The position numbers were made by a program, and so were the translations under genes. The notes under the pieces are model-generated. The model was given only the letters and a program-made list of their open reading frames with translations, was not told the origin of the DNA and did not search any database. Source: a virus (Duplodnaviria; Caudoviricetes). Taken from it: 32,896 nucleotides of DNA. The stretch covers positions 1 through 32,896 of IMG/VR virus record IMGVR_UViG_3300030330_003037; one strand, written 5' to 3'. Of this stretch, positions 21,143 through 29,253 are shown piece by piece; within the stretch, counting starts at the first letter, position 1; each line of letters opens with the position of its first letter.

Positions 21143-22723
21143 ATGGCAACCCACGATTACGTCCTTGCCAACCAAAGCGGCAGTTCGTTCCGTTCGGACC
21201 TGAACAACGCATTGGCTGCAATCGTCAGTCAGAACAGCAGTGCGACAGAGCCCGCAACCAAGTACGCCTATCAGTACTGGGTCGATACCAGCGCAACACC
21301 TGCGCTGATTAAGCAGCGGAATGCTGCAAACAATAATTGGGTAACTCTGGCGGAAGTTGGCGGCCAAACGCTTGCTGATGATGGAACGAATGCAAAGCCT
21401 GGTATCTCGTTTGCTGATGATGTGAATACGGGCCTAAAAAGAAATGCCGCTGATGACGTTTCAATCGTCACAGGCGGCACTCAAGCCATCACGATTGATA
21501 GCTCACAAAATGTTGCGATTGGTACGTCAGGTCCAAGTTCCCAATTGCATTTAAAAAAATCTGACGCTACTGCTTACAGCGCGACCGCAACAGACGGACA
21601 AGTCGGCGTTGGTCCTACTTTATATCTAGAGAACCCAGCAAACACTAATGCAAGTGTCGGCGGTCAGATCGTATTTGGTATGCGATCAACCGAAGAGCAA
21701 GTAAGAATCGCTGCAACTGGTGGAACTACACCTGCACTGACTTTTGGCACTGCAGATGTTGAGCGGATGAGAATCAATTCCAGCGGCAAAGTTGGTATTG
21801 GGACGACGAGTCCTGAAGCAAAACTAAACATTTCTTCTGGGGATGTAGGATTTACTCCAAATGCAGACGCTGATGAACTATTTCTTGAGCATACAGATAA
21901 TTGCGGAATAACGATAGGCTGCGGTCCTAATAAAACAGGCAATATTTACTTCGGCGAGCAAGGAGTAGGAACTAGTCGTGGCGCAATTGTGTATAAAACA
22001 AATGGTAATTCCATGGCCTTCAGCACTGCTGGGCTTACAAATGAACGGATGAAAATCAATGGCAATGGCTACGTCACCCTTGCAGACCAAGCAGCGAGCA
22101 ACGCCATGTTGAGCATTCCTGTTCTTAGCAGCGGTATTGGTGCGATTACATCAGAAGCAGGCACTTCAGGTAACCGCCTCCATATGCGTTTCAAAAACAC
22201 TAACGGCTTAGTCGGCTCAATTGTTACAGGCGGCAGCGGAACCGCATATAACACTTCATCTGATTATCGACTAAAAGAAAATGTTGTTGACATTGCTGAT
22301 GGCATAACTCGCGTCAAGCAACTTGCACCAAAACGGTTCAACTTTATTGTTGATGCAGACACAACCGTTGACGGCTTTTTAGCTCATGAGGCGCAAACTG
22401 TCGTACCAGAAGCTGTTACTGGAACGCAGGATGAAACGGAAAATATCGGCACTCTCACTGAATGGGATGGAACCGTTCTTGAAACTGATGTTGTTGAGCC
22501 TGCGGCTGACGAACTGACTTGGGAAGAAACAATAACTGATGAAGACGGCAACGAAACCGTCGAGACTCGCACCCGTACTTGGACTCAAACCGGCAGCCAA
22601 CCTGTATATCAAGGCATTGATCAAGCTAAATTAGTGCCTTTGTTGACTGCTGCGTTGCAGGAGGCAATCGCCAAGATCGAAACGCTCGAAACCAAAGTCG
22701 CTGCTCTGGAGGCTGCTAACTGA
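21143..22723 (+). CDS. Tail fibre with C-terminal intramolecular chaperone (peptidase S74-like)
   Basis: ERMRINSSGKVGIGTTSP-type repeats; TSSDYRLKENV cleavage motif, GFLAHEAQTVVPEAV, KLVPLLTAALQE coiled coil. Confidence 0.9.
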   Translation: MATHDYVLANQSGSSFRSDLNNALAAIVSQNSSATEPATKYAYQYWVDTSATPALIKQRNAANNNWVTLAEVGGQTLADDGTNAKPGISFADDVNTGLKRNAADDVSIVTGGTQAITIDSSQNVAIGTSGPSSQLHLKKSDATAYSATATDGQVGVGPTLYLENPANTNASVGGQIVFGMRSTEEQVRIAATGGTTPALTFGTADVERMRINSSGKVGIGTTSPEAKLNISSGDVGFTPNADADELFLEHTDNCGITIGCGPNKTGNIYFGEQGVGTSRGAIVYKTNGNSMAFSTAGLTNERMKINGNGYVTLADQAASNAMLSIPVLSSGIGAITSEAGTSGNRLHMRFKNTNGLVGSIVTGGSGTAYNTSSDYRLKENVVDIADGITRVKQLAPKRFNFIVDADTTVDGFLAHEAQTVVPEAVTGTQDETENIGTLTEWDGTVLETDVVEPAADELTWEETITDEDGNETVETRTRTWTQTGSQPVYQGIDQAKLVPLLTAALQEAIAKIETLETKVAALEAAN

Positions 22724-24207: not shown

Positions 24208-24597
24208 ATGATCAAACTTCTCATTGCGAGTGGTGTCGCCGTTTCAGCAGCTGCGCTGGGATCTCCTGCAATCGCCGGTCCCTATGTGAACGTTGAGAAC
24301 AACGCTGGTTTTGCCGGTGGTGACGGTCTCGACATGGATTACACCGGTTCTGTGACCGACTTTCACGTTGGCATTGAAGGTGGTGACAAGGCTTCCTGGT
24401 ACATGCAGATGGGGCCTGCGCTGATCCAGCCTGATGGTGGTTCAGCTGATGTTGAACTGTCCGGCAAGATCGGTGGCTCTGTTGTCGTCTCTGCAGACGA
24501 AAAGCTGAGCATCTACGGCGAAATCAGCTTCATCACTGTGGACGACTTCGACGCTGCCAACGTCGGGACCAAGATCGGAGCGAAATACTCGTTCTGA
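24208..24597 (+). CDS. Exported small outer-membrane beta-barrel-like protein
   Basis: Signal peptide ending AIA; alternating amphipathic strands; C-terminal KIGAKYSF (terminal Phe). Confidence 0.75.
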   Translation: MIKLLIASGVAVSAAALGSPAIAGPYVNVENNAGFAGGDGLDMDYTGSVTDFHVGIEGGDKASWYMQMGPALIQPDGGSADVELSGKIGGSVVVSADEKLSIYGEISFITVDDFDAANVGTKIGAKYSF

Positions 24598-24622: not shown

Positions 24623-24663
24623 AAACCCCTTCCTGACCTCACACCAGGGAGGGGTTTTTCTTT
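24623..24663 (+). terminator. Rho-independent terminator ending the tail operon
   Basis: AAACCCCTTCCTG-9nt-CAGGGAGGGGTTT followed by TTCTTT. Confidence 0.8.
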
Positions 24664-24673
24664 GGTGATCACT

Positions 24674-24904
24674 ATGCAAAAGATCTACAACCTGCTTGCC
24701 GTCTTGGCATTCGTGATGTCTGGAACGATGGCTGTGAGTGGCGTGTTGTTCTACAGCCGCATCCCATCGCTAACCAAGAAATACATCAGCGAGTTAAAGC
24801 TGGAACTGACAAAGACAATCCTTGATCAAGTCCCCGTCCCAGAAATCCCTGAGATGCCAGAGCTGCCAACGGAGACAGGTCCTGCGATCAAGTCACCATT
24901 TTAG
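24674..24904 (+). CDS. Small membrane-anchored protein with a Pro-rich tail
   Basis: ATG 24674; MQKIYNLLAVLAFVMSGTMAVSGVLFY hydrophobic segment; VPVPEIPEMPELPTETGP. Confidence 0.75.
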   Translation: MQKIYNLLAVLAFVMSGTMAVSGVLFYSRIPSLTKKYISELKLELTKTILDQVPVPEIPEMPELPTETGPAIKSPF

Positions 24905-25202
24905 TGTTGGCGGTTGGATCGTCGTCATGAGCTTCAGGTCCGAAGCCTTCAGCCTTGATTTTTGCCATATCAAGTTCTGGCGCGGCTGTTTGTGGTTTCT
25001 CGTCAAACGAAGCTAGCCATTCACGTATCGCTTGACCTGTTGGTGTTCCTTTTGGCCATCGGATGAACTCAAGCATCCGTTTGTTATCGGTAAAGAGCCG
25101 AGATGTTAAACCGTTTGACACCGTATAAACGATCGGCGGACCTTCACGATGCTTGGTACGTTCTATGAAGAGCTGACCTGCTGTAAACCGATCTGATTCC
25201 AT
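24888..25202 (-). CDS. Hypothetical protein
   Basis: 104-aa ORF filling the gap between two + strand genes. Confidence 0.6.
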   Translation of the reverse strand: MESDRFTAGQLFIERTKHREGPPIVYTVSNGLTSRLFTDNKRMLEFIRWPKGTPTGQAIREWLASFDEKPQTAAPELDMAKIKAEGFGPEAHDDDPTANTKMVT

Positions 25203-25878
25203 GCCAGAGATTCAGGGGATTGGTGTTGGAACGGTAGGCGTGCCAAGCATTGGGGTAACGGAGATTTTGCCACCGCCAAAGTTGCCAGCGGAACCACCTG
25301 TCACGTTAATGCTGGGATTCCCGGTGGCAGACATCCCAGGCGGTGACATTCCGCATTACGAGCCGTTGGAGTTTACGCCGGGTCAACACACGCACCAAAC
25401 AGCGCCAGTCCCAAGGCCAAGCACTGAGGAAAAACCGGCTGATCGCTCAAAGCAGCCGGTCTCTGCACCCCTACCAGCTGCGCCGTTAACAGCTGATAAA
25501 CCCAATGTAGAAAAAGAACTGCCATGTCCCCCTCCTGACGCAATTCCTTTAGGTGCAAAAAACAAATCGCAAACTGCTGTCATCATTGGTTACGAAGTGG
25601 TCGATGGGAAGTGTGAGGCGATCTATGAGCCGTTGGGAATACCAACCATCATTGGGAACTATTTACCTGGTGCGCCTGTTGTTGCGACGACTGCGACGAT
25701 TGCGGCTGTGGCAACTACGGCGGCCATTTTTACAAAACCGTTGGGTGACATCCTGCTCAAAGCAGTCAAACCCATCGTCAAAAAGACAATCAAGAAGATC
25801 AAGGAGAAGCTAGGGAAGAAAGTTAAGGTTGAGTCTGTTTTTGACCGTCGGAAGTTTCAGCGGTCTTTGCGGAAGTAG
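25201..25878 (+). CDS. Pro-rich protein with a C-terminal membrane anchor and basic tail
   Basis: Pro-rich N-half, CPPP...GKC Cys pair, hydrophobic VVATTATIAAVATTAAIF, K-rich C-terminus. Confidence 0.75.
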   Translation: MPEIQGIGVGTVGVPSIGVTEILPPPKLPAEPPVTLMLGFPVADIPGGDIPHYEPLEFTPGQHTHQTAPVPRPSTEEKPADRSKQPVSAPLPAAPLTADKPNVEKELPCPPPDAIPLGAKNKSQTAVIIGYEVVDGKCEAIYEPLGIPTIIGNYLPGAPVVATTATIAAVATTAAIFTKPLGDILLKAVKPIVKKTIKKIKEKLGKKVKVESVFDRRKFQRSLRK

Positions 25879-26530
25879 GGATTGAGTGGGTGTGGGGCGG
25901 CAGGTTGCTTGGCGGGTTGGTCAAGACCACATCAGCGCAGATTCCACGATATGGACTATCGGTGTGAAAGCTGATGCCCTTACGCAGTAGCTCGCCACAA
26001 TTTTTAAGTCTTGCTATTTCGTGATTGAGCCTTTTGTCCGCCAACTGTTGTTCCAACAAAAGTACCTGTTTCTCTGCGGCTTTATGGCAACTCCTGATAT
26101 GAGCGCGATCCAGCGGTATCGAAATCGTGGCAGTGATTCCGCTATTTATAGAGTAGTTCGTCTTTTGACCAGTCCGAATCGGACGATAGTAAAGGACATT
26201 GCCCGGATTATCGGGGACGCCATCGGGGATGGCATTGCCTTCCTCATCAAACGCGCCAACCAAATCGAGAGTGTCATAGATGGGCTCGCTGTAATAGGAC
26301 TCGTAGGGATGCGCCCAGCCAACGGTTGTGCTCACAAAAGGGTTGATTGTGAGGCTTGTTCCCTGACAGCTGAAGTTTCCGTATTGATAGATAAAATTTT
26401 TGCCAGGCACAACCTGGACTGCCTGGTTGGTCACTGACCCAGAGCTATTTGCAACGGGCGCTGCAGTACTCGAAACTTGCGCTTGCGCTGGAGCGGAAAG
26501 CAGCAAAAGCGTTGCTATGACTCGCTTCAT
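25823..26530 (-). CDS. Exported protein, putative outer-membrane component
   Basis: Signal peptide ending AQA; 4 Cys; amphipathic strands (TSLTINPF, SGITATISIPL) followed by a helical segment. Confidence 0.8.
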   Translation of the reverse strand: MKRVIATLLLLSAPAQAQVSSTAAPVANSSGSVTNQAVQVVPGKNFIYQYGNFSCQGTSLTINPFVSTTVGWAHPYESYYSEPIYDTLDLVGAFDEEGNAIPDGVPDNPGNVLYYRPIRTGQKTNYSINSGITATISIPLDRAHIRSCHKAAEKQVLLLEQQLADKRLNHEIARLKNCGELLRKGISFHTDSPYRGICADVVLTNPPSNLPPHTHSIPTSAKTAETSDGQKQTQP

Positions 26531-26976
26531 TGGGTAAAGGTGCTGATCGTCTCTGTAAGCGATTCGATGTCAGTCGTCCGATTTATGACTGTGTGATTTG
26601 TAAGCCCTGGACCACTGTAAGTTTCGATGAACTGAAACGATGCGCCTTGGTCAACAATCTTCCAGTCAGGCTTTTTGGCTGGATCAAGTCCTTTCCAGTG
26701 ACTTGTTACGCCGTTGAGATTATTGGTTGTGGTGATTAGCTTGTCTGTGGCGACAGCATCTCCGACTGGAGCAACGTTTGTGCCGCTAACAGTCAGTTCG
26801 TAGCCAGTTCGGTACTGGTACGAGTTGATCACTTCAGTTATTTTCTGCGTTGTCTTTGTGGAACTGGACAGCGAGCCCTGTTGGAAGTTAGGTACTACCG
26901 GCAAAGATTTTGCTTCTGGAGCGGCAAGAGCAATGACGGAAAGCACGCCCCAGGTGATCCAAATGCCAGTCCACAT
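26527..26976 (-). CDS. Exported beta-rich protein
   Basis: Signal-like N-terminus; T/S-rich alternating strands; TGATG and ATGA coupling to its neighbours. Confidence 0.8.
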   Translation of the reverse strand: MWTGIWITWGVLSVIALAAPEAKSLPVVPNFQQGSLSSSTKTTQKITEVINSYQYRTGYELTVSGTNVAPVGDAVATDKLITTTNNLNGVTSHWKGLDPAKKPDWKIVDQGASFQFIETYSGPGLTNHTVINRTTDIESLTETISTFTQ

Positions 26977-27464
26977 CACTTGATGGTCAGCTCTTGGATG
27001 ACTTGCCCGATTGCGGTTGTGCCAGCGCCACCAGCAGTGATTGAAAGAGCACCACCAGAGTCAATAGTTCCATCGAGATCGCCTGCGACGCCACCAGAAG
27101 TTGTGGTGGTAGAACCAAGCATCGGCAATGAACCAACCACGCCTGAAGTTACTGTCGTGGCTGATGGTGTGTCGTCTCCTTCAATAAATGATTCTGTATA
27201 GCTAAAAGCGTCACCAGCAGTTGTAACGCTGTAAGCGGCAGGAGTGTAACCAACAGCGGAACCGGCAGTAAGGGTGCCAAGACCACCAGCAGTGTCCAAA
27301 GTGATGTTTGAACCAGAAACAGAGTATGTAGAGGGAATTTTTGCTGCGACTGATCCCGCTCCATCGACACTCAGCTGAATGCTTGATTGGATTTTATGGG
27401 TGATGTCAGCTTGGGCAGGCAATCCCAAGAGTGTCACACTTAATACCAGAAGTGTGCGCTTCAT
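26976..27464 (-). CDS. Exported G/S/T-rich protein (fibre-subunit-like)
   Basis: Signal peptide ending AQA; mature part lacks Cys, Trp and Arg. Confidence 0.8.
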   Translation of the reverse strand: MKRTLLVLSVTLLGLPAQADITHKIQSSIQLSVDGAGSVAAKIPSTYSVSGSNITLDTAGGLGTLTAGSAVGYTPAAYSVTTAGDAFSYTESFIEGDDTPSATTVTSGVVGSLPMLGSTTTTSGGVAGDLDGTIDSGGALSITAGGAGTTAIGQVIQELTIK

Positions 27465-27724
27465 TTGATGCCAGCCTTGGAATCTTTGTTCTCTACGATA
27501 GTCGGCTTCTTATTCGTGTTGCCATTGTTCTTGCGTTCAATGCCAAATGAAGCCATAGCTCCTGTAAGAAGCGATGCTACAAAGGTATTGTCCATTTTCA
27601 TCTGCGGGAAAAGCCCTAGGTAAGAGACGGTGAGCAGCGTGGCGCTCCAGACCAAGACGGCGCATTTAACGAGATCAGCAACGCTGACGCCTTCTTTTTC
27701 GTTGTTATCCGTTGACTCTGCCAT
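27461..27724 (-). CDS. Small two-TM membrane protein
   Basis: Hydrophobic segments LVKCAVLVWSATLLTVSYLGLF and FVASLLTGAMASFGI; charged termini. Confidence 0.75.
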   Translation of the reverse strand: MAESTDNNEKEGVSVADLVKCAVLVWSATLLTVSYLGLFPQMKMDNTFVASLLTGAMASFGIERKNNGNTNKKPTIVENKDSKAGIK

Positions 27725-27748: not shown

Positions 27749-28000
27749 ATGGTTGAAGTCTGGGCCGCTGTCGCTGGAGCGTCAATAACCACTGCTGCAC
27801 TTGGAGTTTCAGGAATCAACCGACAGTCACGTCAAGGACAGGATTCATTGATCCGTCTGACCACCGCTGTCGACAACCTGTCCAGCAGGCTCGACATCTT
27901 GCATCAAGACATCAAGAGTAAAGACGTAGAAGTCTTTGGGAGATTGAGCCAACTGGAGCAATCAGTGGCGCGTCTGGAAGGTCACAGTGATAGGCACTAA
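27749..28000 (+). CDS. Membrane-anchored coiled-coil protein (lysis module-associated)
   Basis: N-terminal hydrophobic segment, heptad repeat ending VARLEG. Confidence 0.7.
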   Translation: MVEVWAAVAGASITTAALGVSGINRQSRQGQDSLIRLTTAVDNLSSRLDILHQDIKSKDVEVFGRLSQLEQSVARLEGHSDRH

Positions 28001-28027: not shown

Positions 28028-28201
28028 ATGATCCTGATCATCAAGCCAATCCTGATGGCATTTTTGAAGTCAGATTCGGTCAAAAGACTGATTCTTGATC
28101 TTCTGCGTGCTTACGCAAAGACCACAGACAACACGATCGACGATCAAGTTTGCGATTACGTCAGCAAGAATCTTTTTCCTAGCACCCGTGTTGAGAAGTG
28201 A
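28028..28201 (+). CDS. Small amphipathic protein, 57 aa (not in ORF track)
   Basis: MILIIKPILMAFLKSDSVKRLILDLLRAYAKTTDNTIDDQVCDYVSKNLFPSTRVEK*. Confidence 0.75.
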   Translation: MILIIKPILMAFLKSDSVKRLILDLLRAYAKTTDNTIDDQVCDYVSKNLFPSTRVEK

Positions 28202-28344
28202 GGTTGTCCGCGTTTTCCGCAACTGGTTGGTTCGTTGCAGGAGGCGCGGTCATGCTTTTGGTTTGCGCCTCAAGTTTGATATTCATCGGCGCATACAACG
28301 CTGGTCAAGACACCTGTCGCCAGGCAGTATCAGAACAATCCTGA
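28198..28344 (+). CDS. Small single-TM protein, 48 aa (not in ORF track)
   Basis: GTG start with GTGA overlap; MRLSAFSATGWFVAGGAVMLLVCASSLIFIGAYNAGQDTCRQAVSEQS*. Confidence 0.55.
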   Translation: MRLSAFSATGWFVAGGAVMLLVCASSLIFIGAYNAGQDTCRQAVSEQS

Positions 28345-28355
28345 TCGTTTTGGCA

Positions 28356-29063
28356 GTGCCGCTCAGCTTATTGCCCTTCTTTCAGTTTTTCCGTGGTACG
28401 CCCCACCAGTTGGCTGCAATTAAGGAACTTGAGGAGTCAGTGCCAAAGGAGTTATTGGAGGAGGATTCCGATTGGTTTGAAACGTGGAGAGAAAGTGGGC
28501 GAGACGTGGAGGTTTACATGCCCTACTTCAGTCAGCGAGATAACAGGACAGGATTTGGCTATCGAGAGTGTTTCAGCTCAGCAGCTGCGATGGTGGCAGC
28601 GTATTACAAGAAGGTCAAAACAGATGATGAGTACATTGCGATCCGCTCCAAGTATGGGGATACAACTTCTGTTCAAGCGCATCTCAAGGCACTGAAAGAA
28701 CTTGGTTTAACAGCTGAGTTTCGCAAGGATGGCGATTCCGATCTGGTTGAACTTGAGATTGAAAGCGGCAGACCGATACTGGTGGGATGGCTGCATTACG
28801 GCAATTTGCTTCTAGGGGAGCCGCCGATGTGTGACGGCATGAGCTGTGGTCATTGGAGCGTCATCAGTGGTTACGCAGGGAAGCACAGCAGCGATCCAGA
28901 GTGGATCATGCAAGATCCCAATGGCTTGCCAGATATGGTGAAGGGAGGGCACAAAAATCCGCATCTGGGACGTAATGCGCGGATTAGACAGGCTGAGTTT
29001 TACCAACGTTGGCAATCGGAGGGTCCCAGGACTGGGTGGGTGATTTTGGTCGATGATGAGTGA
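28356..29063 (+). CDS. Peptidase C39-like protein, putative endolysin
   Basis: PYFSQRDN, RECFSSAAAM (Cys), GHWSVISGY (His), WIMQDPNG (Asp); start moved to GTG 28356 because two small genes occupy the upstream part of the tracked ORF. Confidence 0.8.
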   Translation: MPLSLLPFFQFFRGTPHQLAAIKELEESVPKELLEEDSDWFETWRESGRDVEVYMPYFSQRDNRTGFGYRECFSSAAAMVAAYYKKVKTDDEYIAIRSKYGDTTSVQAHLKALKELGLTAEFRKDGDSDLVELEIESGRPILVGWLHYGNLLLGEPPMCDGMSCGHWSVISGYAGKHSSDPEWIMQDPNGLPDMVKGGHKNPHLGRNARIRQAEFYQRWQSEGPRTGWVILVDDE

Positions 29064-29253
29064 GTTTTATTGGGTCTGGGCGTTTATCAGTGCGTTTTGG
29101 ACAACTGTGGTTGTGCAATGTGCCAAGCCAGTGAACTGGGATCAGTGTTCACGGGTCAATGATTGGTTGGTGCCGTGGGTGCGAGATGTGATGGAGATGC
29201 ACGAAAAAGGCGCTTATGCGTCTGAGAGAAAAATTCTGGGCAAAGCTGAGTAG
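29053..29253 (+). CDS. Small Trp-rich membrane protein
   Basis: Hydrophobic N-terminus, Cys pair; overlaps the peptidase stop. Confidence 0.6.
   Translation: MMSEFYWVWAFISAFWTTVVVQCAKPVNWDQCSRVNDWLVPWVRDVMEMHEKGAYASERKILGKAE

Follow-up and report, generated by a model that had tools for sequence, protein, structure and literature searches.

The window, that is, the whole 32,896-nt stretch of viral DNA analysed here (IMG/VR record IMGVR_UViG_3300030330_003037), encodes a terminase, a capsid protein, a lambda-J-like tail tip and tail fibres, a content that we read as that of a lambda-like siphovirus. Its homologues suggest that it infects picocyanobacteria. Between the tail fibres on one side and a putative endolysin (phrog_10051) on the other lies a block of six genes, here called the cassette (Table 1). 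Four of these run leftward and encode a small membrane protein (TM87), two likely exported proteins (S162 and S150) and a four-cysteine protein (C235), while the opposite strand encodes a proline-rich protein (Pro225) and a small transmembrane (TM) protein (TM76). A preliminary description of this DNA, made from the sequence alone, had proposed that the four leftward genes (27724 to 25823) are coupled by ATGA/TGATG overlaps, and all six open reading frames (ORFs) and their junctions were confirmed. The leftward junctions read ATGA, GTGATG (with TGATG inside) and ATGA, and the Pro225 gene overlaps the C235 gene head-on by 56 bp. Searches of the six genes against Pfam, NCBIfam and PHROGs returned only domain of unknown function (DUF) or unknown labels: DUF6322 for S150, DUF6450 for TM87, and PHROGs 848, 650, 564, 570, 568 and 721.

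Table 1. Features of the cassette and its surroundings in the window (positions in nt; aa, amino acids; T4-GC, gene cluster of T4-like phages).
Feature	Positions	Strand	Description	Family or match
Tail fibre	21143–22723		C-terminal chaperone domain	Peptidase_S74
PF24653 gene	24208–24597	+	Half barrel, outer-membrane-protein-like (formerly DUF680), 129 aa	Pfam E 3e-35
Hairpin-and-T stretch	near 24625–24663		After the PF24653 gene
TM76	24674–24904	+	N-terminal TM, helix, Pro-rich tail; 76 aa	phrog_568 ('plasmid stability'); T4-GC414
104-aa ORF	24888–25202	-	Between TM76 and Pro225, without TM; accessory	phrog_37139
Pro225	25201–25878	+	Pro-rich, Cys pair, C-terminal hydrophobic anchor, basic tail	phrog_570; T4-GC234
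C235 ('gp165')	25823–26530	-	235 aa	phrog_848/1755; T4-GC235
S150	26527–26979	-	Likely exported subunit, 150 aa from GTG (149 from next ATG)	DUF6322, phrog_650; T4-GC236
S162	26976–27464	-	Likely exported, 162 aa	phrog_564; T4-GC237
TM87	27461–27724	-	Small membrane protein with charged tail, 87 aa	DUF6450; T4-GC218
83-aa protein	27749–28000	+	Hypothetical, first gene of divergent unit	phrog_26178; 24/32 window-like loci
57-aa protein	28028–28201	+		phrog_2738/402; 29/32 window-like, 14/14 T7-like loci
Putative endolysin	28095–29063	+ (opposite leftward block)	C39-like peptidase domain	phrog_10051 E 3e-57; weak PF13529
66-aa protein	29053–29253	+	After the lysin; hydrophobic N-terminus, two Cys	phrog_703

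C235 has a start resembling a signal peptide. Signal peptides were called with a crude rule rather than SignalP, with 16 genes of the window as a control set, two of which met the rule. By the same rule an h-region is present in 107/108 C235 homologues, and none of the 108 carries a lipobox. The four cysteines are invariant among 111 aligned sequences. In a model built from these sequences (predicted local distance difference test score, pLDDT, 72; predicted template modelling score, pTM, 0.35), the N-terminal segment is of low confidence and is followed by a long hairpin and a helix of 42 residues; as the preliminary description had noticed, and as the model bears out, the strands end at GITATISIPL and the helix follows. 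Columns of the strand at mature residues 109–123 alternate between hydrophobic and polar in the manner of outer-membrane strands, and a strand motif near the N-terminus is conserved. From this model C235 is predicted to be the subunit of an outer-membrane ring. Foldseek and VIA comparisons of the model with the PDB gave no significant match, and in profile searches against PDB sequences no match fell below E 0.1.

The crude rule was also met by 51/54 S150 and 47/47 S162 homologues, bearing out the three signal-peptide-like N-termini first described; a lipobox occurred in 1/54 and 0/47, respectively. S150 matches DUF6322 (PF19847) at 113.7 bits, above the gathering cut-off. S162, a distant Ser/Thr/Gly/Ala-rich paralogue of S150 (HHalign 89%, E 2e-6), is tied to that family only through HHalign and the ESM Atlas, where its clusters are 100% DUF6322. 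In the S150 model (76 sequences; pLDDT 83, pTM 0.49), strands 11–32 and 100–122 are arranged around a small β head. By column pattern both faces of the two 22-residue strands are largely polar, and the strands thus suit a soluble tube. Foldseek and VIA found nothing significant in the PDB for this model. Most of the weak matches are long hairpins from barrels that form rings or tubes (those of phage collars, pore stems, FliF and a spore appendage), and they appear to reflect shape, not family. A BFVD search gave significant matches only to cyanophage or unnamed entries, and an ESM Atlas search gave viral clusters only. The lack of a fold match is no demonstration that the C235 and S150 folds are new.

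Among the weak Foldseek matches of S150 a part of a phage tail ranks first, and the cassette lies late, after tail-fibre genes, as would suit an accessory virion structure such as a fibre or tail appendage. We consider such a structure very improbable, however, given the signal-peptide-like starts, the occurrence of the genes in three virion morphologies and the existence of host chromosomal copies (see below). The cassette clusters also have no rows in the virion table of a survey of T4-like cyanophages (Table S8 of PMC3037559), as far as that table goes, since small proteins can be missed. This agrees with the action outside the virion that had been proposed.

The remaining members of the cassette are predicted membrane proteins. 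Pro225 (14.7% Pro) has two cysteines, a hydrophobic stretch at 160–178 and a basic tail, as initially described. The periplasm-spanning role suggested for it found no support: a signal peptide was called in 3/75 members of its family, so a periplasmic location is not established. The family has four cysteines in 72/76 members and a lipobox in 0/75. TM76 (TM at 7–25, 10.5% Pro) is indeed the small TM protein with a Pro-rich tail expected on that strand; its outline is i-spanin-like, but the part after the TM is only ~50 residues long, and no family was matched. TM87 matches DUF6450 (PF20048) at 58.9 bits, above the gathering cut-off. Of the two TM segments originally attributed to it, one was called at a threshold of 1.5 and the second hydrophobic stretch was weaker; the annotation of the P-SSP7 orthologue nevertheless lists two TMHMM helices. 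A lipobox was found in 0/84 and 0/59 members of the remaining two of the six protein families. We rejected two GenBank labels, 'plasmid stability' for TM76, which ill suits a 76-aa TM peptide, and 'baseplate hub + tail lysozyme' for a Pro225 orthologue, which ill suits a Pro-rich TM protein.

C235 was found in 412 of 50,697 GenBank phage records, bearing Synechococcus, Prochlorococcus, cyanophage, marine or uncultured names and spanning myo-, podo- and siphoviruses; the T7-like form of C235 matched 455 records, and S150 matched 412. A protein search with C235 had 6,751 candidates and gave 6,221 clusters. Scanning viral contigs three times yielded at least 80 loci per scan, with a countable flank in 32 window-like, 28 T4-like and 14 T7-like loci. 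All flanked loci were picked via C235, and neighbour counts are conditional on it. S150 lies beside C235 in 74/74 of them. All six genes occur in 32/32 window-like loci, together with the flanking PF24653 barrel gene and the lysin, both of which the preliminary description had omitted. T4-like loci have S162 and Pro225 in 28/28 and TM87 and TM76 in 25/28, and T7-like loci have TM87 and the 57-aa protein in 14/14, Pro225 in 11/14, and S162 and TM76 in 0/14. The 57-aa protein (phrog_2738/402) accompanies the cassette in sipho- and podoviruses. Such co-inheritance over three morphotypes upholds the earlier suggestion of similar clusters in T4-like cyanomyophages. In whole-record searches of five phages, C235 and DUF6450 were found in P-SSP7, P-SSM2 and MED4-184 and not in the lytic S-PM2 or Syn5. 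Another 25 loci, from 49 pattern matches in genome contigs, were read as phage contigs in metagenome-assembled genomes or single cells and were excluded from the host copies. A 188-kb contig in a Nonlabens assembly (NZ_RMVE01000006.1, L247) bears a T4-like cassette, is as long as the genome of a T4-like cyanophage and is probably a contaminant.

As a gene cluster the cassette is already in print, and in this sense the word 'undescribed' in the preliminary description was mistaken. Sullivan et al. (2010, PMC3037559) reported five proteins, all hypothetical (T4-GCs 218/219/234/235/237), often with a 'plasmid stability' gene, as mobile and present in 15/16 cyanophages, all but S-PM2. By length and position, P-SSM2 gp165 and its neighbours are GC234–237, and DUF6450 is GC218. 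Orthologues of GC234, 235, 237 and 218 are clustered in the window with the 'plasmid stability' gene; no GC219-like gene was noticed there, and no profile search was aimed at GC219. The available passages of that survey say nothing of export, structure, homologues in hosts or members in podo- and siphoviruses. A literature search, thin on subscription papers, returned no functional study of the cassette.

The arrangement of the cassette recalls lysis genes. Holin-endolysin-spanin cassettes are late genes that combine a small membrane protein, Pro-rich or TM partners and an adjacent lysin, and T7 lysis genes lie between the tail-fibre and terminase genes. The present cassette shares the late position, the small membrane protein and the Pro-rich and TM partners, adjoins a putative endolysin throughout the window's phage group (32/32), and lies between tail-fibre and terminase genes in T7-like phages. 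A close rival to the interpretation given below is thus that TM87 is a holin and that C235, S150/S162, Pro225 and TM76 breach the outer membrane instead of spanins, possibly after being repurposed from a host system; we regard this as a real possibility, if a somewhat doubtful one. TM87, for which Pfam, NCBIfam and PHROGs gave no holin family match, is holin-like in shape and was seen only on phage DNA, and the cassette is near-universal in the T4-like cyanophages surveyed in 2010. The P-SSP7 cassette genes 042–046 fall inside the late class of that phage (genes 29–51, cited in PMC7885011), assuming the same numbering. A late-promoter-like motif was found upstream of S162 in 8/25 T4-like loci vs. 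4/92 coding control windows; a sigma-70 promoter scan gave 4 matches vs. 4.4 expected, no more than chance.

Several observations fit lysis poorly. Unlike spanin cassettes, this one has no o-spanin lipoprotein and no lipoprotein signal in its protein families, includes soluble exported subunits and has host chromosomal relatives; to our knowledge, soluble exported β-subunits belong to no lysis system. S-PM2 and Syn5 lyse without the cassette, and the latent period of Syn5 is 1 h vs. 8 h for the carriers P-SSP7 and S-SBP1, a comparison of three phages only (PMC7885011, Table 1). The phrog_10051 lysin adjoins 0/28 T4-like and 0/14 T7-like cassettes, though it was the only lysin sought there. The host operons, moreover, show no lysin or TM87 match. 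The cassette may also be of mixed function, TM87 and the 57-aa protein acting in lysis and the exported trio in some other process.

Profile comparisons show that C235 is homologous to chromosomal cyanobacterial genes. A phrog_848 search of 401 genomes of the phylum gave four distant matches besides the centre genome, three amid housekeeping genes beside small exported proteins and one cut by a contig end. A profile of these distant matches aligns with the phage C235 family (HHalign 96.2%) and finds 89 proteins, several named Nostoc, Calothrix, Fischerella, Merismopedia or Pleurocapsa. A follow-up profile search matched in 9/401 genomes and led to a second host type in smaller genomes, which aligns with phage C235 from the N-terminal motif to the third cysteine (HHalign 97.5%) and was found in 37/401 genomes of the family of genome G341. 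By clustering, 40/43 host regions examined contain a C235-like gene. The flanks read around these genes are housekeeping genes, and a match to TM87, TM76 or the lysin occurred in 1/40 regions, which is itself a T7-like phage contig (L354). A recurring small exported family lies within 5 kb of the C235-like gene in 28/40 regions and a Cys-rich exported protein near it in 17/40. Three of the host neighbour families are mutually paralogous (93–98%). One other family among the 11 neighbour families matches S150 (88%, E 3e-6), and another host ORF matches the S150 profile at E 3.6e-6. Among 21 hand-picked neighbours were GT41 (L338, L345) and GT9 (L329, L330) glycosyltransferases, LysM (L332, L336), cadherin-like (L331) and tetratricopeptide repeat (TPR) proteins. 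The four host islands checked have a G+C content of ~35–49% vs. ~52–72% in their flanks.

Several of these chromosomal regions are of interest in themselves. Picocyanobacterial islands (L290–L294 and L325–L346, e.g. G309:C15:304500-308700 and G341:C1:56200-61000) combine a C235-like gene with 2–6 exported Ser/Thr/Gly-rich proteins ending in F-x-x-x-F-like motifs, along with exported proteins rich in Cys and with genes for TPR proteins or glycosyltransferases. Representatives of the island proteins had no Pfam match when scanned, and the islands appear to be undescribed operons and a candidate host surface system in their own right. In a Nostoc-type variant (L277–L279, L294) the neighbours of the C235-like gene are one or two exported proteins that end in HET(S/T/A)xGxR, in which no kinship to S150 (DUF6322) or S162 was detectable. 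A more distant branch occurs in L347, L349, L351 and L352, and in L347 its neighbour is a polysaccharide deacetylase/GHL13 gene, pointing to an exopolysaccharide context. One host C235-like gene is apparently split by a transposase-like ORF (L346:5967-7956).

In genomes G736 and G750 a run of phage type, S162-S150-C235, adjoins NAD kinase, ndh genes and citrate synthase, and the ORFs scanned around it include no phage gene; in G736 a convergent Pro-rich ORF resembles a short Pro form, by eye only. The trio occurs in 2/81 relatives, at contig starts, and groups with the phage branch in a quick, unrooted 65-row tree (Shimodaira–Hasegawa-like approximate likelihood ratio test, SH-aLRT, 98), so these two copies may be phage-derived. 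The remaining 37 rows from hosts make up the side of that tree opposite the phage branch, and this side is deeply split.

The cassette was compared with known envelope systems. In curli and Fap systems, subunits are secreted and assembled through an outer-membrane ring, as CsgG does for CsgA/B, and the cassette follows a similar logic in that Sec-exported paralogous subunits and a dedicated outer-membrane oligomer would be encoded in one operon. Unlike CsgG, C235 has no lipobox and only one hairpin, and the S150 model has two long strands rather than stacked repeats. No CsgG or curlin-repeat Pfam match was found at E ≤ 0.1, and a CsgG-like fold was not among the Foldseek and VIA matches listed for the C235 monomer model, whose pTM is low. 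In TolC/OEP outer-membrane factors, an amphipathic strand closes with an I/V-P-L motif and leads into a long helix. C235 shares this sequence of elements, but has one hairpin, one helix and four cysteines; it has no OEP domain by sequence, and no TolC-like fold was among the matches listed for its monomer model. The CT pilus of Microcystis (PMC12397347) also has a small secreted subunit with long hairpins, an antiparallel β-tube and a pilin-like paralogue, and an O-GlcNAc transferase adjoins its pilin gene, as in some host islands here. In contrast to that pilin, which has a pair of hairpins and, C-terminally, a helix-turn-helix, the S150 model has no helix of at least 4 residues, and the available text on the CT pilus names no C235-like gene. 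Searches of PDB sequences and folds gave no match to the CT pilin, the presence of its entry in the libraries being unchecked. For type IV pilins there was no family match, and the cassette N-termini read as ordinary cleavable signals, not class III prepilin signals. Kinship to curli, TolC or pilins, comparisons proposed in the preliminary description, was not found by sequence or structure searches. Signal peptides were called by the crude rule, the genes co-occur across genomes, and neither a described system nor virion proteins gave a confident match. By sequence criteria no known envelope system has the cassette as a member; it appears new as a system, with a function that is predicted only.

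The host operons, with a ring gene, several secreted proteins, glycosyltransferases and no lysin match, resemble surface-structure loci such as those for curli and the CT pilus (PMC12397347), and for this reason we rank late surface remodelling first. Our preferred interpretation, which we advance tentatively and which may well be wrong, is that the cassette is a phage-borne form of a cyanobacterial surface-building system, in which an outer-membrane ring and a tube or fibre remodel the infected-cell surface late in infection. C235 would be Sec-exported and clamped by disulphides. One amphipathic hairpin per subunit would build a multimeric outer-membrane barrel, the helix would serve as its collar in the periplasm, and the outer-membrane-type element of the preliminary description would survive in this form. 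S150 and S162, once exported, would assemble on the C235 ring as a β-tube or fibre, and the conserved N-terminal strand of C235, of low confidence in the monomer, could pair with neighbouring subunits or with S150. Pro225, TM76 and TM87 would be the phage-side inner-membrane partners. The infected cell could in this way be protected over a latent period of several hours, through receptor masking, aggregation or drag, or defence against grazing.

The hairpin of C235 is of a pore type, a β-barrel gene neighbours the block in the window's group, and pstS lies near the cluster in P-SSM2. A trans-envelope channel lacking an external fibre, through which nutrients or some product of the phage are taken up or exported, would account for these, but we think it improbable. 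No transporter, ATPase or binding protein among the families tested recurs beside the phage cassettes, and the several secreted paralogues of the host islands fit a polymer better.

A number of points weigh against late surface remodelling. The assembly is a prediction and may be otherwise; the monomer models are low in pTM and the structural matches fall below significance (best E 0.007, Z 3.8). The phage form adds membrane proteins, and its place beside an endolysin or between tail-fibre and terminase genes suits lysis. The surface role of the host operon is itself putative, 12/40 host regions lack the recurring exported family, and the chromosomal trio of G736 and G750 sits on the phage branch (65 rows) at contig starts. 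Ten of the 11 host neighbour families are unmatched to S150 and 0/11 match S162, so that most of the 'subunits' in hosts count as analogues in composition alone. The block occurs in hundreds of unrelated marine cyanophages and has chromosomal relatives beside which no phage gene was seen, which makes an undescribed ring and tube or fibre system likely, with a part in lysis as a close rival.

The genes around the cassette are less constant. The PF24653 gene lies within the flank of 32/32 window-like, 6/28 T4-like and 0/14 T7-like loci, and is a neighbour in the window's phage group, outside the shared core. Six-stranded proteins of this type have been modelled as dimers (bioRxiv 10.64898/2026.10.24.761521). 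A hairpin-and-T stretch follows this gene (Table 1). The 104-aa phrog_37139 gene lies antisense within the rightward unit and recurs in 23/32 window-like loci. The true endolysin start is probably downstream of that of the longest frame. The phrog_703 gene after the lysin is present in 31/32 window-like loci, and in the T4-like Sf-FR1 (L004) it lies directly upstream of S162. The Peptidase_S74 tail fibre is ordinary.

What appears to be new here is the link between the phage cassette and chromosomal cyanobacterial operons, the latter unmentioned in our literature search. The cassette is widespread, in most T4-like cyanophages surveyed in 2010 (PMC3037559) and in many T7-like and lambda-like ones, and has had no assigned function since. 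In a bolder form of the surface interpretation, which we consider possible but rather less than probable, a single-hairpin ring nucleating a β-tube would represent an unrecognised cyanobacterial class that cyanophages captured and spread over three morphotypes, and infected Prochlorococcus and Synechococcus would grow a virus-encoded appendage that alters superinfection, aggregation, sinking or grazing. If a surface tube or fibre is indeed formed, there are lytic tailed viruses that encode an appendage of the host cell, and picocyanobacteria own an unrecognised assembly pathway; this would bear on the aggregation and export of infected cells. If the outer membrane is breached instead, the cassette would solve the final step of lysis in a new way. 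The host operons make either interpretation testable without infection.

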